A DNA stretch of 64,000 nucleotides from NCBI RefSeq assembly GCF_054482595.1, contig NZ_CM137008.1. One strand, 5' to 3'. The position numbers and the translations under genes are program-made. Each line of letters opens with the position of its first letter. Position 1 is the first letter of the stretch. Positions 8,142-26,927 of this stretch are shown piece by piece. The notes beneath the pieces are model-generated. The model ran no database searches and had not been told where the DNA came from. It saw only the letters and a program-made list of their open reading frames with translations.

Positions 8142-8151
8142 GCATCTTTCC

Positions 8152-9240: not shown

Positions 9241-9349
9241 ATATTCATCCCTGAAATGTATTAATGAAATAAACGATATTTTACGCGCAATAAATGTTTG
9301 GCTCATTAGTTGTTTGAGCGAAAAATATCTGGAAAGCAGATCACAGTAA

Positions 9350-9388
9350 ATAAAAAAACCTGCTGGTGAGGCAGGTTCTTTTATTTAC
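9350..9388. terminator. Bidirectional intrinsic-terminator-like hairpin, unit A; candidate 3' end of an antisense sRNA
   Basis: aaaaaaa-cctgc-tggtgag-gcagg-ttcttttattt: GC stem flanked by an A-run on one side and a T-run on the other. Confidence 0.5.
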
Positions 9389-9672
9389 TATTTTCAGGCC
9401 TAACACCACAGCCTGTGCAACATCGTGTTCCAACGAACGAATTATAACCACGGCTGGACCCCGTTGCAATTAAGATAATGAGATTTATAATCCAGACCGT
9501 TGGGACGTTGCGCCGGATCGAACCTATTTCAAGTCCTGGCTACCGGACGGGTGGTGCTTCAGGTGGTGCCCTGAGCCGGAGTGCAACATCGTGGTCCAAC
9601 ATACGTAAACCAGTATTGACAGGCAGTGTAAGGGTAAGGTGCTGGTGTTGCGCTCCTTAATAAGGAGAGCGG

Positions 9673-9762
9673 ATGGACTCGCTGACACAAAAGTTAACCG
9701 TGCTCATTGCTGTACTGGAGCTATTAGTAGCTCTGTTACGGTTGATTGATTTGTTGAAGTAA
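9673..9762 (+). CDS. zorP: Small hydrophobic 29-aa protein MDSLTQKLTVLIAVLELLVALLRLIDLLK; candidate type I toxin (ZorO/ZorP-like)
   Basis: ATG 9673 preceded by AGGAG (9662-9669) that lies in an inverted repeat (ctcctta/taaggag) able to sequester the RBS; single predicted TM helix; followed by a hairpin. Symbol recalled from the E. coli O157 zor-orz locus; which copy is O and which is P is uncertain. Confidence 0.55.
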   Translation: MDSLTQKLTVLIAVLELLVALLRLIDLLK

Positions 9763-9783
9763 CGGGCAAATTGAAACGCATCT

Positions 9784-9810
9784 AAGGGGGAAAACCGCTT
9801 CCCCCTTTAA
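9784..9810 (+). terminator. Hairpin downstream of small toxin ORF copy 1
   Basis: aaggggg / ccccctt stem with a 10-nt loop and a short T-run. Confidence 0.4.
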
Positions 9811-9959
9811 TAAAATGATTACTGTTTTTATTAATTCATCATATAACTCATTTTTATTTATAAATTCATCGATTTTATATTCAACGCACCATTTGACCGG
9901 GATGTGAATATTTATGGTGGGCTATTGGCAAAAAATATCTGGAAAGTAGATCGCAGAAA

Positions 9960-9998
9960 ATAAAAAAACCTGCTGGTGAGGCAGGTTCTTTTATTTAC
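9960..9998. terminator. Bidirectional intrinsic-terminator-like hairpin, unit B
   Basis: Same sequence as 9350-9388. Confidence 0.5.
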
Positions 9999-10280
9999 TA
10001 CAGTGACGCTAACTTGCTGATTGTGCAACATTTCGTACCAACGAATAAATTATAACCATATCCACACTCCATTGCAATTCAGTGAGTGAGATTTATAATC
10101 CTGCCCGTTGGGAGGTTGTGCCGGATCGGACCAATTTTAAGTCCTGGCTGCCGGACGGGTGGTGCCGCAGGCGGTGCCCTGATCCGGAGAGCAACGTTTC
10201 GTACCAACATACGTAAACCAGTATCGACAGGCAGTGTAAGGGTAAGGTGCTGGTGTTGCGCTCCTTAATAAGGAGAGCGG

Positions 10281-10370
10281 ATGGACACGCTGACACAAAA
10301 GTTAACCGTGCTCATTGCCGTACTGGAGTTATTAGTGGCTCTGTTACGGTTGATTGATTTGTTGAAGTAA
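10281..10370 (+). CDS. zorO: Small hydrophobic 29-aa protein MDTLTQKLTVLIAVLELLVALLRLIDLLK; candidate type I toxin (ZorO-like)
   Basis: Second copy, differs by one residue (S3T); same RBS-sequestering architecture. Confidence 0.55.
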   Translation: MDTLTQKLTVLIAVLELLVALLRLIDLLK

Positions 10371-10479: not shown

Positions 10480-10797
10480 TTATTCTATTTCTTGGTTGAA
10501 TATATTCTGTAGTTTACGATTAAAAATTGCTATTACAGTTTCAGGTGATTCACCTCGTAATTTCCGCTCATCAATACACTCATCTCTTATATAAATCAAC
10601 GCATCATTTATTAGCGGGTCAGCATCTTCTCGATCACGTTGATGAAATGTTGAACGTAGCCGGAATCGCTCCAGTCGATAGACGGAACCTGTAAATAATT
10701 CAGAGCATTTATGGATCTCAAGTCTGAAGGAAAACGGATCTTCAGGTACAGGGACCTCATAATCGTAAATAGCAACCAGCTCTTTTTGCACGATCAT
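10480..10797 (-). CDS. yehK: YehK, small uncharacterized protein (105 aa)
   Basis: Complete ORF, co-directional with the giant paralogues upstream. Confidence 0.7.
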   Translation of the reverse strand: MIVQKELVAIYDYEVPVPEDPFSFRLEIHKCSELFTGSVYRLERFRLRSTFHQRDREDADPLINDALIYIRDECIDERKLRGESPETVIAIFNRKLQNIFNQEIE

Positions 10798-10858: not shown

Positions 10859-13800
10859 TTAATGGAAAATGACGTCAGGTGCGCTTAACGCCTCACTCAA
10901 ATTAAACACATCAAGTTCGGCAAAAGTGACGGATTTATTGTCACGGTACACTCGAAGAGAACGGAAGCTCATTAACGCTTTGCTATCAACATTGTAGTGG
11001 TTAAAACCGGGTGAAAACTTAAGGACCAGCCGGTACTCGCCCAGGTCATAGACAAATGCATCCTCATAGCCTGACTCCCAGCCTTTGTATCGCATTCCCA
11101 TAAGCTGCCCAACGGTAGCGGATTTACCTTCCCAGCGAGTCAGGCTGTTACTGGTTGACTCGTCAGGTGTGAGCAGCACCGTGCGCCGCGCCAACTGGCG
11201 AAAAGGCGGCATAATTTCGTAATCGGCAAAAAGCTGTGCAAATTCACTGCGCATTTCTACTGTCATTTCTAACGGGTGGGCAATGCCAATCAGAGCGTCC
11301 GCAGGCAGGTCAATTGGCTCATCTTGCGCATTGCAGAACTCCCCCTCTGCGGCCACACGAAAGGCGTTGAGTAAACAACGCGGTTCATTTGCCGGATAAG
11401 CCCCCCATATTAATCGCTGGGTAACCAGACGGGTAAAGGGATGATTAACAAACAGAGAATGAAAATCTGCCAGCGACCAGCGTCGGGTGGTACGTAGGGC
11501 CGTTTCAAGACGCGGGAGCAGGTTTTTGCTCACCTGAGTAGCATCTTTTTTTAGCCCTTTTAGTCGGGCCAGTGCCTCGGGCGCTTTCAGTTGATCGTCA
11601 TCGGCACGCAACCGGGGAACACTTTTCTGGCGAACGTTTTGTTGATCAAAGATAACCGGGTTGAGGTTTTCATCGAAGCGAACGGTAAACTGCCGGGGAC
11701 CAAAATCAAAAATCAACGCCTGCGGATCATCAAGACCTAGTGTTGGGACTAATCTGTCCGCTAACTCTTCCTGGCTTAGCCCGCGATTTTCTGCGACCAC
11801 CTGAAGAAATTCCGCTGCGTTTTCACGTAATGAAGAGGATTTCGCCCGTTGTGATACATGATGCAGCTGTATCAGCGCCATATCATTATTCATCAAGGTA
11901 AGTATATTCAGACCAATGACAGCACGGGCAGATTTGCCTTCTTGTGGCCAGGCGAGGATCTGTGTCGTCAGATCCCGAGCCGTGCTTTCGTCACCAAAGA
12001 GACTTAACGCCAGAAATGCCCAGTTGTCTTTTGCGGGGGCACCAGCTTGTTGCCACGCAGTGAAGAGATCCCAGGCAAAAGCGGCCAGCGTTTGTGGCTG
12101 GCAAAACGTTTTCAGTTGTTCCAGACCGCTATAAAAACGTCCGCCCTGGGTAAAGCGCAGCATTTCGCCGATAATTTCCAGAGCGTCATCGGTAACAGGC
12201 TGATTATTAGTGATAAGTCGCGGCCTGGACCACATTGCCGGATGCCAGAAATCAGGGGCTTTTGGAATGCGTGCCGGGTAAATGTCCATTGGACCCTGTT
12301 TCAGTAAATGCTCCAGGGCAGGCCATACATCTGTACGCTGCCAGCGGTTTGCCACGGTTTGCAGCAATTCACCATGTCCCTGTTCGTAAAGTAAACGCAG
12401 GGCAAGTAATGCAGCTTCGCTATTATCGCTGGATTTGGTGAAGACAAGAGGGATAAGTGCAGTAGCCGTATGTTCCGGCCAATGTAAAATCCACTGGCGA
12501 GCCAGATCACGCTGCACCGCGAAACGTCGCCAGACGCGGGCAACGGGCAGGGCCAGTTCTGTTGCGCCAAAATTTAAAATTAACGGAAATGTTTCTTTTG
12601 GACGATGTAAAAAAGCCAACATCAGACCTGGTAGCGCATCCAACCCGAGGATACTGAGAAAATAGTCCTCACCCGCGAACAGATGTTTTTTCTCATTGAT
12701 ACGCAGCCAGAAGGTCAAAGCCATCTCACGCGGCAACTGTGCCAATAAATACAGGTTCCAGACACTCTTTTCCGGACGATAACGTGAGTAGTTGTCATTT
12801 TCCCATATGTTAATTAACGCTTCTATGTGACCGCTGCGGAGCGCCTGTTCTGCTAATTGTGCTTCCGGGGAGTTCCAGCCATTCAGGATCTCTTCAACCC
12901 GCCCCTGGTAGTAATGCCACTGAACAATGAGTGAATTGCGTGCAGCATCCAGTTTTCCGGGGAGTATATAATTCAGAAACAGCCATACATCATCCCCAAA
13001 ACCCAGTTCCTGTAATACAACTCGCCCACTTTTTTGTTCCATGCGTTCCGCAAGAGATTCCGTGCTGAAATAACGGGCAGACTCAGTGGAGGCAAGCCAC
13101 TCTTGTTCGCCTGGTTGCCAGTAAACTTGCGGGGTTAATTCGAGCGGTGCCAAATCAAGACGTGGAGCTGTCATTTTTTTCTTACTACGCCACGGTGGTG
13201 AAACGAGGATTTCAGGCAGATTGCTGTTATCGGTGCCATCAATAACCGGTTTGGGCGGTGCCAATAAATAACTATTCAGTACTGCCCGGGCTTGAGTACT
13301 TAACCACTGCATCACCTCTTCTGCCAGTTGTGGCTGCGATGCCATCAGCGTTTGTAACAGCGTACGCCAGTATTCATCGCGTGCTTTTTGCTGGGCAGGC
13401 AGCTTTTTGTCTTCGATGATTGGATAACCAAGGCGGGCTGGTGGTTCTTTTAACGCCAGCAGTTCTGCCAGTGCCGCGAGCGTCGCGTGGGGGAAGTTTT
13501 TACTGTATTTAGCCACACGTTGCAGGCTGGGTTTGTTTTTATCAGCCACCAGTAGCAAGGTGTGGATGACCTGCGGATGGTTAATTTGTACCAACAGACT
13601 GCCGCAATCTTCTTTATGGGCATACATCGCGAGGCGCGGAATGGCTGCCAGTCCTTGTTCGCGCAAAAGGGCGGCGCAGGCCGCGTAGCCGAAGTGGTTT
13701 TTTTGTGACATGTAGCTGGCTTCGCGATCGCTAAATACGTCCAGGCCCCAGTATCGTTCGAGTTTTTTTACCGCCGTATTATCAGTAGCAACGACCTTTA

Positions 13801-14491
13801 ACCACTCCTTTGAATGGAGACTTGACCGGGAGCTTTCAAGACTGGCGAGTTCATTGGCTATTTCAGGCTTTTCCGGGAGGATCAGCGCAATAAAAGGACG
13901 GCGAATTTTGGGTATTCCTGGCAGTGCGGCAATGAGTTTATCGGCACAACGCTGCCAGCAACTTTCCTCTGCCAGCGACAGATGCTTACGCAAACGGAGA
14001 TCGAAATCGTTATAGGTCGCGGAGCCATAACCGTAGCCATAGTCCTCGTCCTGATACTGCAAAGTGACGACCAGTGAATCACTCTCATAACGCCGCGCAA
14101 TGCACTGACGCGCCATCACTACATCCGTCGCATATTCCAGCCCCTCTTGTTGGACGATTTCGTCGAGCAACTGTTGGCTGTCATTTTGCGCGATACAGGC
14201 TAGCGCCGCCATTGTCCGGGCCGGGATTGAGGGTTTGTGTTCGCCGATCAAGTTGATGGCCTGCGTGATGGCGGACTGCCACTCCAGTGAAAAATTTTCA
14301 TAACGCCAGACAATGTTTTTTTTCTTCTCAGCTTTTTGTAGCAATTCATCACCCAGTGTCTGAATGATGCTTTCAGTGATAACAGGCACTGGTTCGCCCG
14401 GCCAATTGCGATGGCTGAGTGGTGTTTTACCCTTTTTATATTTCAGTTCCAGTTGGGCGTTATCAGCCAGCCACGGTAATTCCTTGTCCAT
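10859..14491 (-). CDS. yehI: YehI, giant DUF4132-type protein (1210 aa); paralogue lacking the N-terminal WGR-like domain
   Basis: Aligns with the two upstream paralogues from the LPWLAD(N/D)AQ motif onward; conserved C-terminal block (RLxPxLGLDD...FGPRQFTV..FDE.L.P); RBS aaggaaagag upstream. Confidence 0.8.
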   Translation of the reverse strand: MDKELPWLADNAQLELKYKKGKTPLSHRNWPGEPVPVITESIIQTLGDELLQKAEKKKNIVWRYENFSLEWQSAITQAINLIGEHKPSIPARTMAALACIAQNDSQQLLDEIVQQEGLEYATDVVMARQCIARRYESDSLVVTLQYQDEDYGYGYGSATYNDFDLRLRKHLSLAEESCWQRCADKLIAALPGIPKIRRPFIALILPEKPEIANELASLESSRSSLHSKEWLKVVATDNTAVKKLERYWGLDVFSDREASYMSQKNHFGYAACAALLREQGLAAIPRLAMYAHKEDCGSLLVQINHPQVIHTLLLVADKNKPSLQRVAKYSKNFPHATLAALAELLALKEPPARLGYPIIEDKKLPAQQKARDEYWRTLLQTLMASQPQLAEEVMQWLSTQARAVLNSYLLAPPKPVIDGTDNSNLPEILVSPPWRSKKKMTAPRLDLAPLELTPQVYWQPGEQEWLASTESARYFSTESLAERMEQKSGRVVLQELGFGDDVWLFLNYILPGKLDAARNSLIVQWHYYQGRVEEILNGWNSPEAQLAEQALRSGHIEALINIWENDNYSRYRPEKSVWNLYLLAQLPREMALTFWLRINEKKHLFAGEDYFLSILGLDALPGLMLAFLHRPKETFPLILNFGATELALPVARVWRRFAVQRDLARQWILHWPEHTATALIPLVFTKSSDNSEAALLALRLLYEQGHGELLQTVANRWQRTDVWPALEHLLKQGPMDIYPARIPKAPDFWHPAMWSRPRLITNNQPVTDDALEIIGEMLRFTQGGRFYSGLEQLKTFCQPQTLAAFAWDLFTAWQQAGAPAKDNWAFLALSLFGDESTARDLTTQILAWPQEGKSARAVIGLNILTLMNNDMALIQLHHVSQRAKSSSLRENAAEFLQVVAENRGLSQEELADRLVPTLGLDDPQALIFDFGPRQFTVRFDENLNPVIFDQQNVRQKSVPRLRADDDQLKAPEALARLKGLKKDATQVSKNLLPRLETALRTTRRWSLADFHSLFVNHPFTRLVTQRLIWGAYPANEPRCLLNAFRVAAEGEFCNAQDEPIDLPADALIGIAHPLEMTVEMRSEFAQLFADYEIMPPFRQLARRTVLLTPDESTSNSLTRWEGKSATVGQLMGMRYKGWESGYEDAFVYDLGEYRLVLKFSPGFNHYNVDSKALMSFRSLRVYRDNKSVTFAELDVFNLSEALSAPDVIFH

Positions 14492-14500
14492 GCTCTTTCC

Positions 14501-17500
14501 TTATTCAAACAGGGCTTCAATATCGTTAATTAGCTCGCTGGCGGTGATGGCATCGAGTACGGAGAGCTGCGCTTCCTGTGTTGAATTACTCCCCCAGCCA
14601 TAGCTTTCCGCTTTGCCTTCCCATAGCCACTGCTTGCTTAAGAGTTGCTCGGCACTCAGTTCGGCTGGCGACATGCCTACCGCAAAGCCTTCATCGATTT
14701 CCATGATTAACGACCAGCGGCCCAGAGGTTTGATCATCCAGCCGATCCAGCCTCCATCCTGTGGTTCGCCCTTTATCCAGCCTTTATTCGCCAGCCCCAT
14801 TACCCGACCGCTCGGGCATTTTCTGCCTGCCCAGCGGGTCAGTTCGCTGGCATTGCGCTCGGTTTCTGTCAGGGCGTAACTGTTACGGTCGAGCTGGCGG
14901 AACGGCGGTAGCAGTTCGTAGTCGGCAAAAAGCTGCCCAAATGCGGCGGCATCCGTCGGTGATATTTCCAGAACGTGAGGAATACCAACAGAGATATCGC
15001 CTTCCGGCAGGGTGAAAAGATCATCGTCAGCGGTGCTGTAGCTGTTATCTTCCGCTACCCGGAAACAGGCCAGTAGCTGGTTTTCGGCGCTATAAACGCC
15101 CCAAATCAGACGGCGGGTTAAGTGGCGAACTAGCGGATGCTCAACCAGGAAGAGCTGAAAGTTATCCGGTGACCAGCGGCGACGCAGGCACATGGCGGAT
15201 TCCAGCCTTGCTACCTGCTGGGCGGCGACGGTACGCGCATCTTTTTTCAGCAGTTTGTAGCGGTTAACAGCATCGTTCGCCTGTGATTCATCATCGCTTT
15301 TGTTTGGTTTGGGCAGGTCTTTCAGACGGCTGCCAGAAACATCACGCACAAACGGTTTTAAGGTTTCATCAAAGCTGACGGTGAACTGGCGTGAGCCGAA
15401 ATCCAGCAGCAACGAACCGTTATCATCCAGACCGAGATCCGGTGCTAACCGATCTTCAAGCTCTGCCACCGTGAGTTCGCGGCTTTCGGCAATGTCGGCA
15501 ATTTTTTCTTTTGCCCGCTCCTGTAATGCTTTGAATTTCAGTTTCTGGGCAATACCGTTAAGCTGCATCAGGGCGATATCACTACCGATAGCGGCGAGAA
15601 TATCCAACCCAACGGTGGCGCGTTTATGCTGGGATTCACCAGGCCAGGCGCGTATTAATGGCGTCAGTTTGCGGGCGGTGTCATCGTTACCAAGAACGCC
15701 TAACGCAGTGAACGCCCAACTCTCTTTCGACGGTGCGCCCGCAGTCAGCCAGGCGGTAAACAGATCCCAGGCAAATTCAGCCAGTGAGTCGGCGGTACAG
15801 GCATCTTTCACCTGCAATAATCCCGGATACAGGGCCTCTTCCTGAGGGAAGCGGAGCATTTCACCGAGGTGCTGGAGTGCGCTATCTGGCAGTGATTGGG
15901 CGTTTGTATTTAATACCGGGCGCGTCCAGAGCGATGGCTGATAAAAGGCCGGAAGAGTGGGGATTTTTGTCGGGTGATTATCTAAGGGATCGAGCGCAAG
16001 CAGAGCGTTCACCGCGTCGGTTACTTCCGGCTGGTTATAACGCCGGGCGATTTCTTGCAGTAATGGCTGATGACCGTTTTCGGTAAGCATACGTAAGGCA
16101 GCGCGAGCGTTATCTTGTGCTTCACCGGCTTTGCCGAGCGCCGAAGGCAGCAGGCCGGTTATGGCGTGTTCCGGGTATTTTAGCAGCCAGCTACGGGCGT
16201 CTTGTCGTAGGGTTTTGAGTTTGTTGAAGGCGCGGGCAATGAATGGAGCCAATTCGACAGCCGCGAAATATTGTGCCACGGGAAGAGCTTCCTGCGGATA
16301 GCGAGATGCTGAGTGGATAAAACCTGTTAAACCAGCAAGTCGAAGATGCAACATTACTTGTTTTTCACCTGTATGTGGTTCTTTACTAAGGATATTCCAC
16401 ATCTCAATAGCTTTATTTATGGGTAAAACATGGAGTGAAGAAAGCTTCCATTCGCCCTGATAAGGGGCGTTATAGGACTTAAAAGCATCGATCAAAGTTA
16501 AATAATCTTCACGCTGCCAAGCATCCAACGCTATTTCTGGAATATCAATATAGCCTCTATGTTTGTTCCAATCCCAGCGGTCGAATCCCAGGGAATTCAG
16601 AAAACCTTTTTCTCCCTCTGCTTGCTGACGAGGTTGCCAATTATGCTGCACTTGTAGTCTTTTGCTTTTTGTTTCATTTATTGTACAGAAAGATTCCAGG
16701 GGTAATGGTGCTAAATCCAGCACTGGAGTCGGCGATTTTTTCTTTTTAGCCTGCCACGGCGGTGAGACTAATACGGCAGGCAGCATATCGGCGTTCGCAT
16801 AAACTGAAGGTTGTGTCAGTTGTTGCTGGCATGACTTAAGAACGGTAACTGTCGGGGCAGATAGCCAGGAGATCACCCGTTCTACTAATGTTGGTTGTGA
16901 GATAAGCATCGTCATTAGCATCATGCGCCAGCGCTTTTCATCTTTTTGTGCCAGAAGTTCTGCTAATGCCGCCAGCGCTGCATGTGGAAAGCGAACGAAA
17001 GCCTTTGTCATGCGATCGTGGCAACGCTTTCCCTGCTCACTTGCATGGATAAGTAGTGTAAGTGCTTGCGGGTGGTTGATATGCATCAACACTTCCCCAC
17101 ATGTGTCACCAGCAGCGTAAGGGGCAAAACGGGCCAACGCAGCGACACCTTGCTCCTTGAGTACTGTCGCACACCAGATTTTACCGCCGTAATAATCATC
17201 AAATACCTGCCCTGGCTGTCCTGGATAGTATTTCCCCAGTTCTGCCAATACCTGCTCGTCGGTGGTCGTCAGTTTTAGCCATTCCAGCGCATATACCCCT
17301 TTTTGTCCGCAAAGATGTCTGGCAATCTCATGAGCTACTTCTGGTTTTTCCGGCAACAATAGTGCGACCAGCGGCTGGTTCCAGGCGGGCATGTTTCCGA
17401 GAGCGGCAATCAGTTTGTCGGCGCAGCGCTGCCATACATCGTCATTTGCAAGTGAGAGATGCTTACGCAGGCGCATTTCAACCGAAGCGAAGCGTGACAG

Positions 17501-18259
17501 ATAGTCAGGCTGCTTGTTATCCGGGGTAAAAGTAATGAGGTGGGCATCATAATTCCAGTCAAATCGGATGAATTGCAATGCGATGACAACCTCAGTGGCA
17601 TATTCCAGACCACCTTCCTGGACAATTTGATCCATTAACTCTTCGTGATCGTTACGATTGAAGCCTTGCTCCAGCGCAACCAGTACCGCCAGAACCATCG
17701 GTAGTAGTGTGGTGCTAATCGGCGAGTCGATAAGGCCCACTGCTTGTGTAATCGCCTGCTGCCAGTCCAGTGAACAGGTGCTGTAATCGAAGGTGATCAC
17801 CTTTTTAAAACGCCGGTGAGTATTCGCGGAGACGGAGCGTAGCAGGGTTAATTCATTCTCCTTTGGCACAGGATCGCCAGGCCAGCGTCGATGACTTAGT
17901 GTGGTTGGCGCAACCTCTGTCGGTAAAATGATTTGGGCGTCGTCTGCCAGCCAGGGGAGGTGGTCTCCAGTCAATGCTGGTTTGTCTTGTGGCAAAGGGG
18001 CTATTTCAGGGCATTCGATAACCTGGGTGGGTACAGATGTCGGTGTCATCACGGATACTTCTTCTACGTAGCCCTTTTTTGTTTTCTCCGCAATCAGCTT
18101 CAGTTCCGCTTTTTCCGCCGCCGCAGCATCTGCAAAGCTTTTTACCTGACTTTGCCCGTTAGTGCCGACTTTACCCCAGGTTATATGCAGCTCGTTTCTC
18201 TGCTGCTCCACCGCCCAGAATTTATGTGATTTTTCGTCCTGATAAATATAGGTTTTCAT
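14501..18259 (-). CDS. Giant WGR-domain / DUF4132-type protein (1252 aa), MolR/YehH-like paralogue
   Basis: N-terminal MKTYIYQDEKSHKFWAVEQQRNELHITWGKVGTNGQ (WGR-like); N-terminal and C-terminal segments are near-identical at DNA level to the 1266-aa paralogue; RBS aagga upstream. Confidence 0.8.
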   Translation of the reverse strand: MKTYIYQDEKSHKFWAVEQQRNELHITWGKVGTNGQSQVKSFADAAAAEKAELKLIAEKTKKGYVEEVSVMTPTSVPTQVIECPEIAPLPQDKPALTGDHLPWLADDAQIILPTEVAPTTLSHRRWPGDPVPKENELTLLRSVSANTHRRFKKVITFDYSTCSLDWQQAITQAVGLIDSPISTTLLPMVLAVLVALEQGFNRNDHEELMDQIVQEGGLEYATEVVIALQFIRFDWNYDAHLITFTPDNKQPDYLSRFASVEMRLRKHLSLANDDVWQRCADKLIAALGNMPAWNQPLVALLLPEKPEVAHEIARHLCGQKGVYALEWLKLTTTDEQVLAELGKYYPGQPGQVFDDYYGGKIWCATVLKEQGVAALARFAPYAAGDTCGEVLMHINHPQALTLLIHASEQGKRCHDRMTKAFVRFPHAALAALAELLAQKDEKRWRMMLMTMLISQPTLVERVISWLSAPTVTVLKSCQQQLTQPSVYANADMLPAVLVSPPWQAKKKKSPTPVLDLAPLPLESFCTINETKSKRLQVQHNWQPRQQAEGEKGFLNSLGFDRWDWNKHRGYIDIPEIALDAWQREDYLTLIDAFKSYNAPYQGEWKLSSLHVLPINKAIEMWNILSKEPHTGEKQVMLHLRLAGLTGFIHSASRYPQEALPVAQYFAAVELAPFIARAFNKLKTLRQDARSWLLKYPEHAITGLLPSALGKAGEAQDNARAALRMLTENGHQPLLQEIARRYNQPEVTDAVNALLALDPLDNHPTKIPTLPAFYQPSLWTRPVLNTNAQSLPDSALQHLGEMLRFPQEEALYPGLLQVKDACTADSLAEFAWDLFTAWLTAGAPSKESWAFTALGVLGNDDTARKLTPLIRAWPGESQHKRATVGLDILAAIGSDIALMQLNGIAQKLKFKALQERAKEKIADIAESRELTVAELEDRLAPDLGLDDNGSLLLDFGSRQFTVSFDETLKPFVRDVSGSRLKDLPKPNKSDDESQANDAVNRYKLLKKDARTVAAQQVARLESAMCLRRRWSPDNFQLFLVEHPLVRHLTRRLIWGVYSAENQLLACFRVAEDNSYSTADDDLFTLPEGDISVGIPHVLEISPTDAAAFGQLFADYELLPPFRQLDRNSYALTETERNASELTRWAGRKCPSGRVMGLANKGWIKGEPQDGGWIGWMIKPLGRWSLIMEIDEGFAVGMSPAELSAEQLLSKQWLWEGKAESYGWGSNSTQEAQLSVLDAITASELINDIEALFE

Positions 18260-18271
18260 TGTTAAATCCTT

Positions 18272-21200
18272 TTAATCAAACAGTGATTCAATGTCGTTAA
18301 TCAGCTCGCTGGCGGTGATGTCGTCGAGCATGGAGAAAGTGGGTGAGGATTGTTTACCATAGCGATCATAAGGGGCGGTGATTTTTACGCTTTCGACAGG
18401 CAGCAGGTCGCTATACCCCGTTTCGCCATAAATTAATGAAAAAGGTTCTGTTTCAAGTTCGAGAGCACCATAAGGGGTAGATTTGCGCATCGCATAGACG
18501 CTGCCGCTTTCTTCCAGACGTTGCCAGCCTCTGCGTTCCAGCCCGACAATGCGTCCGGCCTGGCAGAGACGTCCGTTCCAGCGTGACAATTCATGGACAT
18601 TACGTTCGTTATCAGCAAGGTGGTAACTACCACGTTCGAGCTGTTGGAAAGGGGGAAGCAGTTCGTAATCAACGTAAATTTGCCTGAATGCAGCGGCGGA
18701 TTCAGGGGGGATTTCCAGCACATGCGGTATACCGATGTTTCCTGCTGGCAGCGTGAATAACTCATCCTGCGCATCGCTGTAAGTGCTGTCTTCTGCCACG
18801 CGAAAACAGGTGATAAGAGCGTTTTCATCGTTATAAACCCCCCATAACAGCCGTCGGGTTAAGTGACGTACCAGCGGATGCTCCACCAGAAACAGGCGGA
18901 ACTGCTCTGCCGTCCAGCGTCTGCGCTGGCACATAGCCTGTTCCAGACGGGTAATTTGCTGGCTGGCGATAGCACGAACATCTTTTTTCAACTGTTTGAA
19001 GAGATTAACTGCGTCAGTTGCCAGTGTTTTATCATCGCTCTGGTTTGGCTTAGGTAAATCTTTCAGGACTTTGCCGTTTGCATCGCACACTACAGGTTTT
19101 AAGGTTTCGTCAAAACCAACGGTGAATTTGCGGGGGCCGAAATCCAGTATCAGCGAGCCACTGCTATCAAGCCCTAAATCCGGTGCCAGGCGATCTTCCA
19201 GTTCGGCCATTGTCAGTCCGCGATTTTCGGCGACCATATTGATTCTGTCGCTGGCATTTTCCTGTAATGCAACGAATTTAATCTTTTGCGCAATGCCATT
19301 AAGCAACATAAGCGCAATGTCGCTACCGATACTGGCTAACACATCCAGCCCGTAAACCGCGCGTTTATGCTGGGATTCACCCGGCCAGGCGCGGATGAGC
19401 GGGGTTAGTTTACGCGCGGTGTCGTCATTGCCTAGAATCCCCAGCGAGGTAAATGCCCAGTTCTCTTTTGCGGGTGCGCCTGCTTCTGTCCATGCCGTGT
19501 AGAGATCCCAGCCAAAGTCAGCCAGTGATTCGCGGGTGAAGGTCTCTTTGATGATCGCCAGCCCAGCGTAGGAGGTAATGTCGCGTGGAAAGCTCAACAT
19601 TGTGCCGAGGTGGCGCATAGCGTCATCTGGCAGAGGCAGGTTGTTACTTTTAAGCCGAGGTCTGCGCCATAAGGTGAACTGATAAAAGCCGGGCAGTGGG
19701 GCGATTTTTGCAGGATATTCTTCCAGTGGGGCGCTATCAAATAATGTTGCCAGCGCAGATAAAACATCAGGTTGATTATATCCTTGGGCGATTTCCTCAA
19801 TCGTTTCTCGCTGGTTTAATTTCACTAGCAGGAGGAGTGCCTGGCGGGCATATTCCCGATTTTGGCACGGTTTGCCCAGCGCCAAAGGCAGTAGCCCGGC
19901 GGCGGCATGGCGCGGGTTATTTGCCAGCCAATTAACGGCATCCTTGTAAGCTATTTTTTTCTGTAACCGCTGCGCCATTGGTAAGGCTAGTTCACTGGCT
20001 CCAATAAAAAGGGTGAATATCCACAGGCGTTGATGATCTCGTTGCAAGCAGGTCATAAACGCAGGAATGGCCGTACTACCAAAAACCGCCAGAATCTCTT
20101 TCTCACCTGAATATCGCTCCTCAATGATTATTTGGTTGAGAAATGAAATCGCCTGTTGTCCCGGTAAGTAACAAAGCGCAGATAGATTCCAGCTTTTGTT
20201 GGCATTGTTGTGATATTTCGCAAACTCAGCTTTTAGTGCTGGAAAATCAAAGCGCAACAAGGCATCAACAGCGCTTTGCGGTATATATTTTTTTTCATGT
20301 AAGTCATTTTCGCAATGCAGCCATTCATTAAAACCTAATTGCCAAAGGATTTGTTGTTCTGGTGTAAAAGGAATGAAAGATGTCTCCCAGCTTTCTTTTT
20401 CAATTAGTGGCAGAACGGTAAATAAGGTTTGCTGTGATGCCTGATATTGCGCAATTTCACTGAATCTGGATATGTCAGTATGACTGATTAACTCTGTAAT
20501 TCCTGGTGTGATATCCGTGACGGCAGGAATGGGAAGTACCGGTAAATCAAATACGGGTATGACATTCTTTTTCTTATTTATTACCCACGGTGGAGCGACA
20601 AGCAGCTCCGGCAACATATCCACAGTGGCATATTCACATTCTTCAGCTACTGGCAGCGGACGACATTCAGATAAGATGCCTGCCGCCTTAGCATTAACCC
20701 AGGGAATGACCTCGCATACTAACTCTGGCGTGGCGGTAATCAGTTTGACAAGCGCTTTACGCCACTCATTATTTTCATGTATTGCCAGCAAAGTAGCATA
20801 AGCGGCAATAGCCGCAGCGGGATGTTTTTGGCAGGCTTTGCTTAAGTATTCCAGGTGCTTTTTCTTGCCATTTACACCGAGGATCAGAATTTGAATCGCA
20901 TCCGGGTGATTCGTTTTCCATAGCCATTTGACAAGATCTTCAGCATTGGCGTGTATGTGAGTGAAAAGGTCCGTGTATTTTACGGGATAGTCGACAGGTA
21001 GCTTGAGAAGAATCCGGCTTACACCACGCATTCCATTATTTGCCAGCAACGTAGCCAGATATTTGCGGAAATCATTATATAGCGGTGGGAAACCATATTT
21101 TTCCTGGATGGCCAGGGCAACATCATCGCTTACCATCATACTTAACCAGGTCATCGCCGGAACGTTTTGGTCTGCATAACGTAGCGCCATAGCATTGGCA

Positions 21201-22072
21201 ATATCCGGGCATTCGGGGAGCAGTAACGCCGCAAAAGGTTGCCGTGCTGGGGATAGCGTCGGAATGGCGGCGAGTACTTTATCTACACAGCGTTGCCACT
21301 CATCTTCTGAAGCGAGTGAAAGATGATGACATAGACGTTGATGCCAACTCGGCAGCGATTCTGCTTTGTGATTAGGTGGAATGATGGTGGTTACTGCGCC
21401 TTTTACTGGTTTATATCTAAGTTGAAGAGCGAGAAGGGCAATTTCAACGGCACTTTCCAGACCACAGCGAATGACTAAGTCATCGACCAGTTCATCTGCA
21501 GAGTAAGAGTTCCAGAAACTCCAGAGCAATGCTGCATCAGATTGTGCACTCCCTGTCTGTTGATTACCCTGAACTCGCATTTGTAACTCAGCAAAAGCCT
21601 GCTGCCAGTTTTCTGGATAAGAACGGTAATTGTTGGCGGGATCATATGCCCTGGTGTTATTCGCGATGAGCTGCCATATTTGACCATCTTTGTGCAGATA
21701 ATTGATCTCTCTGGGGCGAGAGCGATGAGGAAAAGCAAATCGATTAATATCGTCAGTTAGCCGAATGACCGCATCATCAGCCAGCCAGGGGCGTTGGTTT
21801 TTACTCTCAGGGGAAGTTTCAACTTCAGGAGTGGCTTTGGTAATGGGGGGGATATGCACGTTTGCTGAAGCATTTTCCACATAGCCTTTTTTCGTTTTCT
21901 CTGCGATCAGCTTAAGCTCCGCTTTTGCCGCTGCCGCAGCATCCGCAAAACTTTTTATCTGGCTTTGCCCGTTAGTGCCGACTTTGCCCCAGTTGATATG
22001 CAGCTCGTTTCCCTGCTGCTCAACCGCCCAGAATTTATGTGATTTTTCGTCCTGATAGATAAAGTGTCTCAT
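18272..22072 (-). CDS. molR: Giant WGR-domain / DUF4132-type protein (1266 aa), MolR-like (misnamed molybdate metabolism regulator)
   Basis: N-terminal MRHFIYQDEKSHKFWAVEQQGNELHINWGKVGTNGQ; position next to metG matches recalled K-12 molR, where it is a pseudogene. Confidence 0.75.
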   Translation of the reverse strand: MRHFIYQDEKSHKFWAVEQQGNELHINWGKVGTNGQSQIKSFADAAAAAKAELKLIAEKTKKGYVENASANVHIPPITKATPEVETSPESKNQRPWLADDAVIRLTDDINRFAFPHRSRPREINYLHKDGQIWQLIANNTRAYDPANNYRSYPENWQQAFAELQMRVQGNQQTGSAQSDAALLWSFWNSYSADELVDDLVIRCGLESAVEIALLALQLRYKPVKGAVTTIIPPNHKAESLPSWHQRLCHHLSLASEDEWQRCVDKVLAAIPTLSPARQPFAALLLPECPDIANAMALRYADQNVPAMTWLSMMVSDDVALAIQEKYGFPPLYNDFRKYLATLLANNGMRGVSRILLKLPVDYPVKYTDLFTHIHANAEDLVKWLWKTNHPDAIQILILGVNGKKKHLEYLSKACQKHPAAAIAAYATLLAIHENNEWRKALVKLITATPELVCEVIPWVNAKAAGILSECRPLPVAEECEYATVDMLPELLVAPPWVINKKKNVIPVFDLPVLPIPAVTDITPGITELISHTDISRFSEIAQYQASQQTLFTVLPLIEKESWETSFIPFTPEQQILWQLGFNEWLHCENDLHEKKYIPQSAVDALLRFDFPALKAEFAKYHNNANKSWNLSALCYLPGQQAISFLNQIIIEERYSGEKEILAVFGSTAIPAFMTCLQRDHQRLWIFTLFIGASELALPMAQRLQKKIAYKDAVNWLANNPRHAAAGLLPLALGKPCQNREYARQALLLLVKLNQRETIEEIAQGYNQPDVLSALATLFDSAPLEEYPAKIAPLPGFYQFTLWRRPRLKSNNLPLPDDAMRHLGTMLSFPRDITSYAGLAIIKETFTRESLADFGWDLYTAWTEAGAPAKENWAFTSLGILGNDDTARKLTPLIRAWPGESQHKRAVYGLDVLASIGSDIALMLLNGIAQKIKFVALQENASDRINMVAENRGLTMAELEDRLAPDLGLDSSGSLILDFGPRKFTVGFDETLKPVVCDANGKVLKDLPKPNQSDDKTLATDAVNLFKQLKKDVRAIASQQITRLEQAMCQRRRWTAEQFRLFLVEHPLVRHLTRRLLWGVYNDENALITCFRVAEDSTYSDAQDELFTLPAGNIGIPHVLEIPPESAAAFRQIYVDYELLPPFQQLERGSYHLADNERNVHELSRWNGRLCQAGRIVGLERRGWQRLEESGSVYAMRKSTPYGALELETEPFSLIYGETGYSDLLPVESVKITAPYDRYGKQSSPTFSMLDDITASELINDIESLFD

Positions 22073-22173
22073 TCTGCATCCCTGTAATTTTATCCAGTTG
22101 AATGCAGATGCTACCAGTATTTATGCGGGTTAGAGAGAGACAAAATCGTAAGAAAACAACTTTAGGAATTTAT

Positions 22174-22202
22174 AAAGAAAAGGCGCTGTCGATGCAGCGC
22201 CT
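22174..22202 (-). terminator. Intrinsic terminator downstream of metG
   Basis: Minus-strand hairpin aggcgctg-catcga-cagcgcct followed by a U-run (plus-strand aaaaa 22176-22180). Confidence 0.6.
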
Positions 22203-22212
22203 TGAAGGGGGA

Positions 22213-24246
22213 TTATTTCACCTGATGACCCGGTTTAGCACCGGCATCCGGGCTTAGCAGGAAAATATCTTTCCCGCCAGGACCGGCAGCCATCACCATG
22301 CCTTCAGAGATACCGAAGCGCATTTTACGTGGTGCCAAGTTAGCCACCATAATGGTGTGACGACCAATCAGTGCCTGCGGATCCGGGTAAGCAGAACGAA
22401 TGCCGGAGAAGACATTGCGTTTTTCACCGCCGAGATCCAGCGTCAGGCGCAGCAGTTTGTCAGAACCTTCAACAAACTCTGCGTTTTCAATCAGCGCCAC
22501 GCGCAGGTCAACTTTAGCGAAGTCGTCAAAGGTGATGGTTTCCTGAATCGGATCATCTGCCAGTGGGCCAGTAACTGGCGCGGCAGCTGCTTTCACTTCT
22601 TCTTTAGACGCTTCCACCAGTGCTTCAACCTGCTTCATATCGATGCGGTTATACAGCGCTTTGAACGGATTCACTTTGTGGCCCAGCAGCGGTTGCTGGA
22701 TACCATCCCAGGTCAGTTCCGTATTTAGGAATGCTTCTGCGCGCTCGGTCAGTTTCGGCAGTACCGGCTTCAGGTAAGTCATCAGCACGCGGAACAGGTT
22801 TATGCCCATCGAGCAAATTGCCTGCAGGTCAGCATCGCGGCCTTCCTGTTTCGCCACCACCCACGGAGCCTGTTCATCGACATAGCGGTTAGCCAGATCA
22901 GCCAGCGCCATAATTTCGCGCACTGCTTTACCAAATTCGCGGCTTTCCCACGCTTCACCAATCACTTCAGCGGCATCAGTGAAGGTTTTGTACAACTGCG
23001 GGTCAGCCAGTTCGCTTGCCAGCACGCCGTCAAAACGCTTATTAATAAAGCCTGCGTTGCGGGAGGCCAGGTTAACCACTTTGTTCACGATATCGGCATT
23101 CACACGCTGAACGAAATCTTCCAGGTTGAGATCGATATCATCAATGCGCGAAGAGAGTTTCGCAGTGTAGTAGTAACGCAGGCTGTCGGCGTCAAAATGA
23201 TTCAGCCAGGTGCTGGCTTTAATAAAGGTGCCGCGAGACTTGGACATCTTCGCACCGTTCACTGTCACATAGCCGTGAACAAACAAGTTGGTCGGCTTGC
23301 GGAAGTTGCTGCCTTCCAGCATTGCAGGCCAGAACAGGCTGTGGAAGTAAACAATATCTTTACCGATGAAGTGGTACAGCTCGGCGGTGGAGTCTTTCTT
23401 CCAGTATTCATCGAAGCTTACGCTGTCGCCGCGCTTATCGCACAGATTCTTGAAAGAACCCATGTAGCCAATCGGTGCGTCCAGCCAGACGTAGAAATAT
23501 TTGCCCGGCGCGTTCGGAATTTCAAAACCGAAGTACGGTGCGTCGCGGGAGATATCCCACTGTTGCAGGCCAGATTCAAACCACTCCTGCATTTTGTTTG
23601 CCACCTGCTCCTGCAACGCACCGCTGCGGGTCCATGCCTGCAACATTTCGCTGAAAGAGGGCAGATCAAAGAAGAAGTGTTCAGAATCACGCATTACCGG
23701 GGTAGCGCCAGAAACCACCGATTTCGGCTCGATCAGTTCAGTCGGGCTGTAGGTCGCGCCGCAGACTTCGCAGTTATCGCCGTATTGATCCGGGGATTTA
23801 CATTTCGGGCAGGTGCCTTTCACAAAACGGTCCGGCAGGAACATGCCTTTTTCCGGATCGTACAGCTGAGAGATGGTGCGGTTTTTAATAAAACCGTTTT
23901 CTTTCAAGCGAGTATAGATAAGCTCAGACAACTGGCGGTTCTCTTCGCTGTGCGTCGAGTGATAGTTGTCATAGCTGATGTTAAAGCCTGCGAAATCAGT
24001 CTGATGCTCCTGACTCATTTCGCCAATCATCTGCTCCGGGGTGATACCAAGCTGCTGAGCTTTCAGCATGATCGGTGTACCGTGGGCATCGTCGGCGCAG
24101 ATGAAGTTGACCTCGTGGCCGCGCATTCGCTGGTAACGGACCCAGACATCAGCCTGGATGTGCTCCAGCATATGGCCGAGGTGGATTGAGCCGTTAGCGT
24201 ACGGCAGTGCGCACGTCACCAGAATTTTCTTCGCGACTTGAGTCAT
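22213..24246 (-). CDS. metG: Methionine--tRNA ligase (677 aa)
   Basis: [29 protein letters not shown] (HIGH-type motif), KMSKS present; ORF trimmed to the ATG at 24244-24246. Confidence 0.95.
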
Positions 24247-24377
24247 AGTAGGCATTACTTCTTAATAGTGAAAAGGGGTTAGATAGTACCAAATGGGAAA
24301 ATGTTAAGTAAGTACTTCTCTATATTCTTCAGGTAAACTATCAGCTGATGGTTTATCTATACAAAAAAGGAGTCGGG

Positions 24378-25487: not shown

Positions 25488-25515
25488 CGCCTATTAACCA
25501 TTCTGGTTATTCTTC

Positions 25516-25558
25516 ATACACCGCAGAGATGTTATATTGATGCGGTGTATTTGTTTTT
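25516..25558 (+). terminator. Intrinsic terminator after apbC
   Basis: tacaccgca...tgcggtgta stem followed by tttgttttt. Confidence 0.6.
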
Positions 25559-25748
25559 GCCGCATTAATGAACACTTATTTAATACTGCGAATATTCTGC
25601 GGACCTTCGTCCGAAACTCTACAAAGTCGATTGATCGTACAGGCAATGCTTCATTATCATCCTTCGTGCTGTGTAGTGGATGTACAGCTATAGTTTGTTA
25701 TGCACTCATTCTATCCAGGCATAACCTTTACTACAGGGATAACGTTCA

Positions 25749-26030: not shown

Positions 26031-26060
26031 TTTGGCAACCTGATTTTAATTGCATTTAGA

Positions 26061-26100
26061 AAGCCGAAATCATTTATATAAATGATTTCGGCTTTTTTAT
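26061..26100 (+). terminator. Intrinsic terminator after yehE
   Basis: 15-bp perfect stem aagccgaaatcattt / aaatgatttcggctt followed by tttttt. Confidence 0.65.
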
Positions 26101-26865: not shown

Positions 26866-26898
26866 TAAATAAAATTGCAAGTTTCTCCAGGTAATAAA

Positions 26899-26927
26899 CA
26901 TGGCCGCTATCCCCATGGCGGCTTTTT
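26899..26927 (+). terminator. Weak hairpin plus T-run between yehD and yehC (candidate attenuator)
   Basis: gccgc / gcggc stem with a 10-nt loop followed by ttttt. Confidence 0.35.

Follow-up and report, generated by a model that had tools for sequence, protein, structure and literature searches.

The locus between metG and yehK

The DNA analysed here (the window) is a stretch of 64,000 nucleotides of an E. coli contig, NZ_CM137008.1, and all coordinates are positions within it. Its metG–yehK interval holds three intact open reading frames on the minus strand, each with an ATG start, which we call genes A, B and C and which are among the largest uncharacterised genes of E. coli. The original prediction gave them 1266, 1252 and 1210 aa and spacers of 9-12 nt, and these values are exact. 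The features of the interval, and of the yehLMPQ set, are as follows.

22180-22203 (-): metG intrinsic terminator, between metG and the probable DUF4132 operon; a G+C-rich hairpin of nine pairs, with a T run after it
22080-22099 (-): LexA (SOS) box-like site AACTGGATAAAATTACAGGG, of the form CTG-N10-CAG, 7 nt upstream of the gene A ATG
18272-22072 (-): gene A, accessory WGR and DUF4132 protein, 1266 aa (from the ORF, Pfam, the genome survey and AF2 models)
21875-22073 (-): 5' homogenised tract of A, WGR-coding, with its partner in B at 18062-18260 (repeat finder, dS)
21866-22057 (-): WGR of gene A
19913-20632 (-): allele-hypervariable middle of gene A, aa 481-720
18524-19075 (-): DUF4132 of gene A
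18272-18336 (-): 3' homogenised tract of A, coding for the C-terminal acidic helix, with its partner in B at 14501-14565 (repeat finder, dS)
18260-18271 (-): A-B spacer, 12 nt, AAGGATTTAACA, with a Shine-Dalgarno-like AAGGA
14501-18259 (-): gene B, WGR and DUF4132, 1252 aa, positional orthologue of K-12 molR
18059-18241 (-): WGR of gene B
14777-15334 (-): DUF4132 of gene B
14492-14500 (-): B-C spacer, 9 nt, GGAAAGAGC
10859-14491 (-): gene C, which is yehI, DUF4132 only, without WGR, 1210 aa
11078-11632 (-): DUF4132 of gene C
10480-10797 (-): yehK, a small gene of 105 aa downstream of yehI, frameshifted in several strains
2736-9240 (-): the yehLMPQ set (RefSeq annotation of an identical strain)
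8152-9240 (-): yehL, MoxR-type AAA+ ATPase
5862-8141 (-): yehM, DUF5682
4733-5869 (-): yehP, VWA
2736-4736 (-): yehQ, SWIM

Domain architecture

The WGR domain (PF05406) is found by Pfam at aa 6-69 of A (E 1.4e-18) and at aa 7-67 of B (E 1e-17) and has no match in C, as had been predicted from the start of the first two paralogues. DUF4132 (PF13569) is present in all three proteins, with E-values of 1.9e-50 in A, 4.2e-51 in B and 2.3e-46 in C, and each match covers positions 1-179 or 3-179 of the 179 in the model. These two are the only domains that Pfam finds in A, B and C, with no effector, toxin or secretion/trafficking domain among the matches, and RefSeq calls such proteins 'WGR and DUF4132 domain-containing protein'. 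In NCBIfam the sole match is an uninformative one, at the level of the WGR, to part of a Leptospira 'fibronectin-binding' model (61 bits against a cut-off of 1000), and PADLOC-DB 2.0 gave no matches for the eight proteins submitted (A, B, C and YehK, YehL, YehM, YehP and YehQ).

The fold of the WGR matches those of PARP3 and PARP1 and that of 2ra8, its motif being WGK instead of WGR, and the domain is likely to bind nucleic-acid ends or nicks. The three paralogues appear to share a modular plan, in which a PARP-like WGR start (in A and B) is followed by a long middle and a conserved C-terminal module. The middle (aa ~100-720) is predicted to be alpha-solenoid and mixed in structure, with strong differences among paralogues and among strains, and the C-terminal module of ~550 aa would consist of HEAT-like repeats, the DUF4132 alpha/beta domains and an acidic terminal helix. 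Neither modelled half of the gene A protein (AF2) gives an enzyme-like fold match, the fold searches returning helical repeats and WGR only; PDB sequence searches returned no solved structure of DUF4132, YehM or YehQ.

Conserved ends and a divergent middle in A and B

Protein identity between A and B is 86% over aa 1-50, 18-45% over aa ~100-800 and 64-82% over aa ~850-1145, falls to 20% at aa ~1195-1240 and reaches 67% in the last 27 aa. With segments ranging from 18% to 86%, the pair is a mosaic and not a case of uniform divergence. The predicted divergence of some 600 central residues is real, but the divergent stretch is longer (~750 residues) and a second divergent patch precedes the C-terminal helix. 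Coding ends of about 90% DNA identity had also been proposed, which suits the 5' sample (18190-18259 against 22003-22072, 63/70 identical, 90%) better than the 3' sample (14501-14560 against 18272-18331, 51/60 identical, 85%). A repeat finder independently returned 199 nt at 88% for the 5' pair (18062-18260 and 21875-22073) and 65 nt at 86% for the 3' pair (14501-14565 and 18272-18336), so that the 3' likeness in DNA spans only ~65 nt.

Low synonymous divergence between A and B is limited to these tracts, that is, to the first ~200 nt and the last 65 nt of the genes, where it lies below the gene-wide pS of 0.72 (P = 1.5e-5 and 9e-4, respectively). Over WGR codons 1-63, dS is 0.52 for A-B and 1.4-2.2 for the orthologue pairs A-Kox1 and B-Kox2, and over the last 21 codons it is 0.41, against 1.1-1.5 for the Klebsiella orthologue pairs. 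The WGR segments of A and B share 89% of their residues and 88% of their nucleotides, compared with 79% and 74-79% for A-Kox1 and B-Kox2, and in all other internal segments the reverse holds, the orthologues being closer than the A-B paralogues. The low dS of the ends, together with this excess of paralogous over orthologous likeness, supports gene conversion at the A and B ends in E. coli; in K. oxytoca it shows only weakly (dS 1.17 and 0.90). Across strains, the 5' sequence groups of A and B do not track gene position. Such short conversion tracts would keep the two genes alike at their WGR-coding 5' ends and over the final ~65 nt, and they may supply homology for changes in copy number.

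The conserved C-terminal third has a different origin. There dN is 0.12-0.28 and dS is saturated, the likeness being at the protein level only, so that this part has been kept by purifying selection and not by conversion. The mosaic of A and B thus has two causes, gene conversion at short end tracts and purifying selection on the C-terminal third, and the original explanation of the conserved ends by conversion stands for the former and fails for the latter.

Alleles and distribution

The core of gene A occurs in 1643 of 5426 complete E. coli genomes (~30%) and that of yehI (gene C) in 5267 of them, yehI and yehLMPQ being near-universal in the species. K-12 has molR (yehG/yehH) and yehI at the same metG–yehK locus, C corresponding to yehI and B to molR. 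K-12 molR is, as originally stated, a pseudogene, frameshifted and with an internal stop. The two genes of K-12 are not, as was supposed, a triad in decay; in its 3' half molR is orthologous to B (92.6% identity), and A is an extra gene. The strain studied here differs from K-12 in this additional first gene, in the allele type of the B N-terminus and in having all three frames intact. The N-terminal 600 aa of gene B are of a 'B type' found in 689 genomes, whereas the 'M type' of K-12 is found in 3681; gene B is intact, and its orthologue in strain wlxctx60, which carries an annotation as intact, matches it at 94% identity from end to end. K. oxytoca carries a matching WGR/WGR/no-WGR trio, whose members pair off one-to-one with A, B and C as orthologues in all segments but the WGR, and, on this orthology, the triad is older than the Escherichia–Klebsiella split. 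Because of the same trio we rejected the view that the triad arose by recent duplication from an ancestral two-gene state such as that of K-12.

Alleles are block mosaics with dN/dS of 0.16-0.34, near 0.2. In 60-codon Nei-Gojobori windows dN/dS shows no sustained excess over 1, a single value of 1.20 resting on a dS of 0.03, and divergent allele blocks have dS above 1. The divergent central blocks are old and have been moved by recombination. The diversified core of the original prediction is borne out between paralogues as well as between alleles, but it did not arise by rapid positive selection; homologous recombination would shuffle old, deeply diverged blocks among strains. Allele entropy was computed from the best 120 matches to full-length A, which are Escherichia alleles only and do not measure the diversity of the family. 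In the DUF4132 genes, dN is 10-30 times as high as in metG and yehL. At least one DUF4132 gene is disrupted in 4 of 10 E. coli loci inspected, the disrupted copies being K-12 molR, LSC52 yehI, 2009C-3378 A and B, and the truncated yehI of E09, and in ST131 L1a a transposon insertion has been described in a gene of the locus (PMC9334617). Such frequent inactivation indicates that the genes are dispensable. They were not found on phages, and the module is in only 30 of 72,556 plasmid records.

Promoter and probable operon

The box AACTGGATAAAATTACAGGG is a unique exact match in the window. It is kept in 9/9 E. coli loci, with CTGGATAAAAACACAG as the K. oxytoca version, and the 110 nt upstream of gene A, the box included, differ from K-12 by a single base. 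The promoter region thus has a candidate LexA site of the kind that marks the E. coli SOS regulon; molR is among the SOS genes with a known SOS box (PMC6590174), and its promoter and transcription start have been mapped and found to be activated by BglJ-RcsB (PMC3950696). A scan upstream of homologues outside Enterobacteriaceae gave no convincing LexA box, the box being seen only in Escherichia and Klebsiella. A, B and C probably form one operon, transcribed from the molR promoter downstream of metG: the spacers measure 12 and 9 nt, no terminator-like hairpin stands between the three on the minus strand, and the metG terminator precedes them. In E. coli the yehLMPQ genes do not belong to the same transcription unit, since K-12 yehLM has an upstream region of its own, bound by H-NS (PMC3686432), and yehK is separated from yehL by a type I toxin-antitoxin locus.

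A gene set conserved across phyla

In a survey of 54 loci of at least 15 kb each, from Enterobacterales, Burkholderiales, Xanthomonadales, Myxococcota, Actinomycetota and Alphaproteobacteria, homologues of yehLMPQ (MoxR/DUF5682/VWA/SWIM) adjoin the DUF4132 genes in 40. Copy number of DUF4132 genes per locus runs from 1 to 6 or more, with arrays of 2 to 6 paralogues at 15 of the loci, and solitary members of the family exist as well (L011, L012). By gene neighbourhood, the locus is a YehL-type cluster, with adjacent AAA_5 MoxR, DUF5682, VWA and SWIM genes. The five-component set is conserved in a range that extends from Enterobacteria to Actinomycetes, and DUF4132 is the only component to expand into arrays. 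The profile of conserved WGR, variable middle and conserved C-terminus recurs in independent arrays. Among the matches listed family-wide (6070 clusters, E <= 0.001), most align from about aa 590-710 of A through the C-terminus; the family comprises >6000 clusters at 50% identity and has strongly conserved motifs.

Proposed role and its alternatives

We propose, with a probability of about 0.55, that A, B and C, ancient tandem paralogues in a probable operon, encode adaptors or sensors that form the variable subunits of an uncharacterised MoxR–VWA machine. In MoxR-VWA pairs, the MIDAS site of the VWA protein binds an acidic residue of the target, which the ATPase then remodels (PMC9976466; PMC7159879). 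By analogy, the conserved C-terminal module would dock each paralogue onto YehL (MoxR AAA+), YehP (VWA), YehM (DUF5682) and YehQ (SWIM), and ligand specificity, set by the variable middle, would differ from one paralogue or allele to the next. The DUF4132 proteins would serve the machine as interchangeable adaptors, sensors or clients, to be remodelled by the ATPase, possibly in answer to DNA damage or foreign nucleic acid. Counting against this reading are the solitary members of the family, the lack of any effector or enzymatic domain match in the DUF4132 proteins, the separate transcription of yehLMPQ in E. coli, the restriction of the SOS box to Escherichia and Klebsiella, the weak conversion signal of K. 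oxytoca and the dispensability indicated by frequent inactivation. Searches of the literature on DUF4132, DUF5682, the yeh genes, WGR with SWIM and MoxR, and dinO/sosF found no functional study.

A bolder and rather doubtful extension holds that WGR-DUF4132 arrays and YehLMPQ make up an undescribed, widespread, chromosomal surveillance system with the MoxR-vWA couple at its centre, each paralogue or allele being a distinct sensor. The sensor would combine a WGR reader of nucleic-acid ends with a variable solenoid; its loading, remodelling or activation upon DNA damage or invading DNA would fall to the AAA+/VWA/SWIM/DUF5682 machine; and recombination and gene conversion would maintain a germline-encoded repertoire of receptors. 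The earlier label of 'sensor-type conflict protein' may be apt, although PADLOC gave no matches and neither phages nor typical plasmids carry the genes.

The mosaic itself could be ascribed to unequal purifying selection alone, with the WGR and the C-terminus constrained, the linker drifting, no conversion and nothing special about the core. This would suit the saturated dS and low dN of the long C-terminal third, the like profile in unrelated arrays and family-wide, and the allele dN/dS of 0.16-0.34 with no signal of positive selection; we consider it unlikely, as dS is itself low in the end tracts (0.52 and 0.41 against >1 elsewhere; P = 1.5e-5 and 9e-4), paralogue ends are closer to each other in E. 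coli than to their Klebsiella orthologues, and the 5' sequence types are not tied to gene position. That the paralogues are functionless relics in decay, of which the triad is a less decayed state, is very unlikely. Pseudogenes are indeed common, as seen in the disrupted copies and the ST131 L1a insertion (PMC9334617) listed above, and dN is higher than in metG and yehL by a factor of 10-30, but this strain and many others have three intact frames of >1200 codons, with dN/dS at about 0.2. The orthologous trio has, moreover, outlasted the Klebsiella split, and strongly conserved motifs persist through >6000 clusters.

The gene set might also encode a MoxR-VWA chaperone with a housekeeping task, the insertion of a cofactor or metal, comparable with NorQD, CoxDE, CbbQO, BchI/D/H and CobS/T/N, with DUF4132 as client or scaffold. 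Characterised pairs do serve the maturation of specific complexes (PMC9976466, PMC3893208), the genes are chromosomal, absent from phages and rare in plasmid records (30/72,556), and yehI and yehLMPQ are near-universal in E. coli. Such a role would also fit the old name 'molybdate metabolism regulator', for which we found no support, nor any published paper linking the protein itself to molybdate. In the neighbourhoods read, no candidate target enzyme lies beside the locus (elsewhere only Yeh, WGR and DUF4132 homologues were sought); WGR and SWIM suggest nucleic acids or protein recognition and not metals; extreme allelic divergence, 1 to 6+ copies and frequent pseudogenes would be unusual for a cofactor pathway; and the gene has an SOS box, all of which makes this role improbable. 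A likeness to polymorphic toxins or effectors with swappable cores could be seen in the size of the proteins, their tandem arrangement as paralogues, and the variable interior between conserved ends. This likeness breaks down, and the idea is barely credible: the variable region is central and not C-terminal, Pfam finds no secretion, trafficking or toxin domain, no enzyme-like fold was matched, and spacers of 9-12 nt leave no room for an immunity gene after each copy.

For the preferred reading, that of variable subunits of a MoxR–VWA machine, the conserved gene set, the expansion of DUF4132 only and the diversified middle provide a testable hypothesis for a family of >6000 clusters. Lineages vary in how many copies and which allele types they have at the locus, and the same findings explain this polymorphism, as well as the mis-calling of intact mosaic alleles as pseudogenes by annotation pipelines. 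Should the proteins sense nucleic-acid damage or invaders, they would represent a new architecture for bacterial MoxR-vWA biology.

Comparison with known systems

Compared with the WGR proteins PARP1/2/3, A and B have no PARP catalytic domain and carry WGK as their motif, and their nucleic-acid binding is putative. The Yeh set shares with the MoxR/VWA pairs RavA-ViaA, NorQ-NorD and CoxD-CoxE a MoxR ATPase (yehL, YehL being a named MoxR subfamily) and a VWA protein (yehP), but it adds DUF5682, SWIM and one to many WGR-DUF4132 proteins, and has no known client enzyme. The MoxR-vWA ternary conflict systems (Kaur, Burroughs, Iyer and Aravind 2020, PMC7159879) similarly join a MoxR-vWA couple to large components, one of them highly variable. 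They are defined by a VMAP, iSTAND, FtsH or beta-propeller third component with attached effector domains, and SWIM, WGR and YehL do not occur in the text that describes them (PMC7159879). In A, B and C, in contrast, Pfam and fold searches gave no such effector domain (peptidase, nuclease, TIR etc.), and the Yeh locus owes its variation to arrays of paralogues and recombination among alleles, where DGRs and the swapping of effectors play no part. The threshold-setting or remodelling logic proposed for the ternary systems (PMC7159879) could apply to the Yeh set.

The three DUF4132 genes and their neighbourhood

The window belongs to an E. coli chromosome, strain 2824 being 100% identical to it over 13 kb. 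Three tandem DUF4132 genes, designated A, B and C (the last being yehI), sit between metG and yehK-yehLMPQ, and they were found as minus-strand ORFs exactly at the coordinates of the original prediction:

18272-22072, minus strand: gene A, intact ORF, 1266 aa
14501-18259, minus strand: gene B, intact ORF, 1252 aa
10859-14491, minus strand: gene C (yehI), intact ORF, 1210 aa

The A-B and B-C spacers measure 12 and 9 nt, respectively, and both carry a Shine-Dalgarno-like purine run. Pfam places DUF4132 near the C-terminus of all three proteins and a WGR domain at the N-terminus of A and B, with none in C, in agreement with the earlier assignment of WGR to two of the three genes. AlphaFold2 gives a confident model of A aa 640-1266 (pLDDT 90, pTM 0.78), in which about 320 residues of helical repeats are followed by beta-rich and alpha/beta domains over DUF4132 and, last, by a terminal helix. 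In the model of aa 1-700 (pLDDT 81), the WGR domain, a beta-sheet with a helix, spans aa 1-66, a disordered linker occupies aa 71-90, and helical repeats fill aa ~130-470. The region at aa 490-700 is mixed and less confidently modelled; it corresponds to the hypervariable block of this protein. A 181-aa TTG-initiated ORF lies antisense within gene B (window 15300-15845, plus strand); nothing supports it and it is probably spurious. Elsewhere in the window, G+C falls sharply to 0.35-0.36 at 25500-27000, downstream of apbC and near the yehE/yehD fimbrial genes.

Regulation

A is preceded by a strong terminator of metG, and on the coding strand nothing like a terminator hairpin was found between A, B and C. 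A LexA-box-like site, AACTGGATAAAATTACAGGG (CTG-N10-CAG), lies 7 nt ahead of the start codon of A. This site is conserved throughout the nine E. coli loci; K. oxytoca has it with two spacer changes, and in more distant taxa it is not recognisable. One review counts molR as an SOS gene whose SOS box is known (PMC6590174). The K-12 molR promoter was located by 5'-RACE; BglJ-RcsB activates it and H-NS does not repress it (PMC3950696). Compared with K-12, a single base is changed in the 110 nt that precede A. H-NS binds a separate upstream region that belongs to yehL and yehM (PMC3686432).

Between yehK and yehL (window 9341-10370) lies a tandem zorO/orzO type I toxin-antitoxin locus, whose copies are contained in a direct repeat of about 608 nt. 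It matches the yehI-yehL locus described previously, which K-12 lacks (PMC2887945):

9352-9427 and 9962-10035, minus strand: OrzO antitoxin RNAs (Rfam, 99.9 and 88.8 bits)
9673-9762 and 10281-10370, plus strand: ZorO ORFs, 29 aa each

An ancient trio with converted ends

Overall protein identity is 47% for A-B, 34% for A-C and 40% for B-C, and the A-B value hides a strongly mosaic distribution: 86% at aa 1-50, 18-45% at aa ~100-800, 64-82% at aa ~850-1145, 20% at aa ~1195-1240 and 67% over the last 27 aa. The near-identical A/B segments proposed from the sequence were recovered, the two examples being identical at 63/70 and 51/60 positions, and an independent repeat search delimited matches of 199 nt (88% identical) between the 5' ends and of 65 nt (86%) between the 3' ends.

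Nei-Gojobori windows of synonymous and nonsynonymous divergence separate these conserved stretches. A-B dS is saturated (>1) almost throughout, including the conserved C-terminal third, in which dN is only 0.12-0.28, so that purifying selection holds this part. Low dS is confined to two places, the first ~63 codons (0.52) and the last ~21 codons (0.41), values that are improbable against the gene-wide pS of 0.72 (P = 1.5e-5 and 9e-4 for the 5' and 3' tracts, respectively).

K. oxytoca harbors the same trio (WGR, WGR, no WGR) directly upstream of its yehL and yehM homologues. Whether the N-terminal, middle, C-terminal or tail segment is compared, each of its genes (Kox1, Kox2 and Kox3, by position) is clearly nearest to its positional counterpart. 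The C-terminal module is 67% identical in A-Kox1, 80% in B-Kox2 and 67% in C-Kox3, and the tail 49%, 71% and 39%, against 14-28% for non-positional Escherichia-Klebsiella pairs. This segment-wise orthology indicates that the triplication is older than the Escherichia-Klebsiella split. The pattern is reversed in the WGR segment alone, where E. coli A and B share 89% of amino acids and 88% of nucleotides, compared to 79% and 74-79% for orthologue pairs, and where the low A-B dS contrasts with 1.4-2.2 between orthologues. Such a reversal is the classical signature of gene conversion, and the 3' tract shows it too in E. coli, orthologues there reaching dS 1.1-1.5. Between the K. oxytoca paralogues the conversion signal is weak (dS 1.17 and 0.90).

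The first 190 nt form three sequence groups across the nine E. coli loci, which the rest of the gene does not follow. In the two-gene strains K-12 and CFT073 the lone WGR gene opens with codons of the position-1 type (ATGAGACAC...) and continues as the position-2 gene, and strain E09 carries a K-12/CFT073-type core behind a position-2 type start. Recombination inside the WGR-coding repeat, with gain or loss of one gene copy, fits this pattern.

Copy number, alleles and inactivation in E. coli

Of 5426 complete genomes, 5267 carry the yehI core (89-100% nt identity). The position-2 gene (B/molR) has a 3' half that is orthologous in all strains inspected (92-97%), and its first ~1900 nt exist as at least two deeply different allelic types, 'M' (K-12/CFT073) in 3681 genomes and 'B' (that of the window) in 689. 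Gene A is accessory: 1643 genomes (30%) contain its core, with identities of 84-100%. In 9-11 of the 5426 genomes, position 1 is taken by a third, very different gene (1246 aa; locus L007 11103-14843). Over its N-terminal and middle portions this gene is only 26-30% identical at amino-acid level to A, B and C; it has the WGR start in common with A, as well as 97% of the last 66 nt. About 905 genomes match 80% or more of the 13-kb arrangement seen in the window.

Gene A of the window and that of strain CCUG 73778, which also has an intact triad, differ with dS 1.3-1.9 at aa 481-720, up to 0.69 at aa 301-360 and 0.06-0.55 in most other windows, and yehI of the window is saturated against wlxctx60 at aa 421-660; the alleles are block mosaics. 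Amino-acid entropy among 115 A alleles is maximal at aa 481-730. Allele dN/dS is 0.16-0.34 overall, and the comparisons revealed neither sustained values above 1 nor evidence of fast positive selection. The diversity therefore goes back to ancient alleles that recombination has moved about, with constraint being moderate. The flanking metG and yehL have comparable dS (0.02-0.21) with dN 10-30-fold lower; metG itself (window 22213-24255) shows fairly high dS among sampled strains (0.09-0.21) and very low dN.

Inactivation is common among the sampled E. coli loci. K-12 is no decayed triad, since it has only yehI and molR, the orthologue of B, which is a frameshifted pseudogene. In LSC52 it is yehI that is frameshifted. 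Whole-system decay occurs in some lineages: strain 2009C-3378 (L009) has stops or frameshifts in A and B and a stop in yehM, and in E09 (L010 5618-7792) a deletion joins a truncated yehI to yehM, yehK and yehL being gone. In the ST131 sublineage L1a, a blaCTX-M-15 transposon lies within the region (PMC9334617). The neighbouring yehK (105 aa, window 10480-10797) is intact here and annotated as frameshifted in CFT073, CCUG 73778, RIVM_C029670 and FXCREC073 (L003, L004, L005, L008); it has no PADLOC match. RefSeq/PGAP splits gene B of the identical strain into two 'partial'/'incomplete' pseudogene pieces (L001 16502-18601 and 19880-20260). B is an intact ORF, 94% identical end to end to a wlxctx60 gene annotated as intact, and the pseudogene call is probably an annotation artefact of a mosaic allele that matches two reference proteins.

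A five-component gene set across phyla

The DUF4132 family comprises 6070 clusters at 50% identity (E <= 0.001). Among the matches listed, most align from about aa 590-710 of A to the C-terminus, so that a variable N-terminal half is a family-wide property. Scanning one genome per species gave 66 loci, which come from Enterobacterales, Burkholderiales, Xanthomonadales, Myxococcota, Actinomycetota and Alphaproteobacteria; their ORFs were annotated with the E. coli YehL (MoxR AAA+ ATPase), YehM (DUF5682), YehP (VWA) and YehQ (SWIM) proteins. Loci of 15 kb or more number 54, and 40 of them contain two or more of the four homologues. In nearly all of these 40 the four genes keep the same order and adjoin the DUF4132 gene(s); the exceptions are nearly all Massilia array fragments or extra copies. 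Precomputed Pfam labels provide a further example, with WGR-DUF4132, DUF4132, AAA_5, DUF5682 and VWA in a row. Two Mycobacterium talmoniae contigs of 3.5 and 7 kb (L022, L062) encode DUF4132/YehL homologues 48-56% identical to the E. coli protein, nearer to it than other actinobacterial matches, and may represent assembly contamination.

Tandem arrays of 2 to 6 DUF4132 genes are found in 15 of the 54 loci. Those of Massilia (L033-L042, L052, L063) hold at least 5-6 genes per 22-kb locus and run past the locus ends; genes with WGR and DUF4132 and genes with DUF4132 alone precede a single MoxR/DUF5682/VWA/SWIM set. Overlapping loci suggest still longer arrays, and solitary copies lie elsewhere in the genome. 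Four independent arrays share the E. coli profile, with 64-84% identity in WGR and 58-93% in the C-terminal module. The N-terminal and middle region between them is mostly 31-57% identical, one Rhodanobacteraceae window reaching 81%. The conserved set has five components, of which DUF4132 alone is multiplied, and within this protein only the N-terminal and middle parts are diversified, behind a PARP-like WGR domain and ahead of a conserved C-terminal module. The module was absent from 50,697 phage records and, among 72,556 plasmid records, was seen in only 30, most of them chromids or as large as a chromosome.

Proposed role and relation to known systems

From this combination of a five-gene set, one multiplied and partly diversified component, a conserved C-terminal module and WGR, we infer that the DUF4132 proteins would be interchangeable adaptor, sensor or client subunits of a YehLMPQ MoxR-VWA machine. 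Both the SOS box and the WGR domain point to a possible connection with DNA damage or with nucleic acid of foreign origin. A reading as a conflict system is tempered by the lack of PADLOC defence-model matches for A, B, C or YehK/L/M/P/Q, by the lack of effector domains found in A, B and C, by the chromosomal, non-mobile site and by dN/dS well below 1. Two other explanations, a housekeeping cofactor-chaperone role and simple decay, are considered less likely than the subunit role.

The genes and domains are already annotated in public databases, and no functional study of them was found in the literature searched, which names YehL alongside MoxR; we take YehL to be a recognised MoxR subfamily. 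To our knowledge, no earlier publication describes the orthologous triad and its ancient origin, the short tracts of conversion, the block mosaics formed by the alleles, the synteny of the five genes that is conserved between phyla, or the repeated occurrence of paralogue arrays. The three-gene 'DUF4132 region' itself was previously noted in ST131 (PMC9334617).

In MoxR-VWA pairs such as NorQ-NorD, the MIDAS site of the VWA protein binds an acidic residue and the AAA+ ring carries out remodelling (PMC9976466, PMC7159879). By analogy with these and other pairs, the VWA MIDAS site would bind an acidic residue of the target, which the AAA+ ring would remodel, and a speculative candidate for such a handle is the conserved acidic C-terminal helix (LDDITASELINDIESLFD). 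The locus is rated as belonging among the MoxR-VWA multi-component systems.
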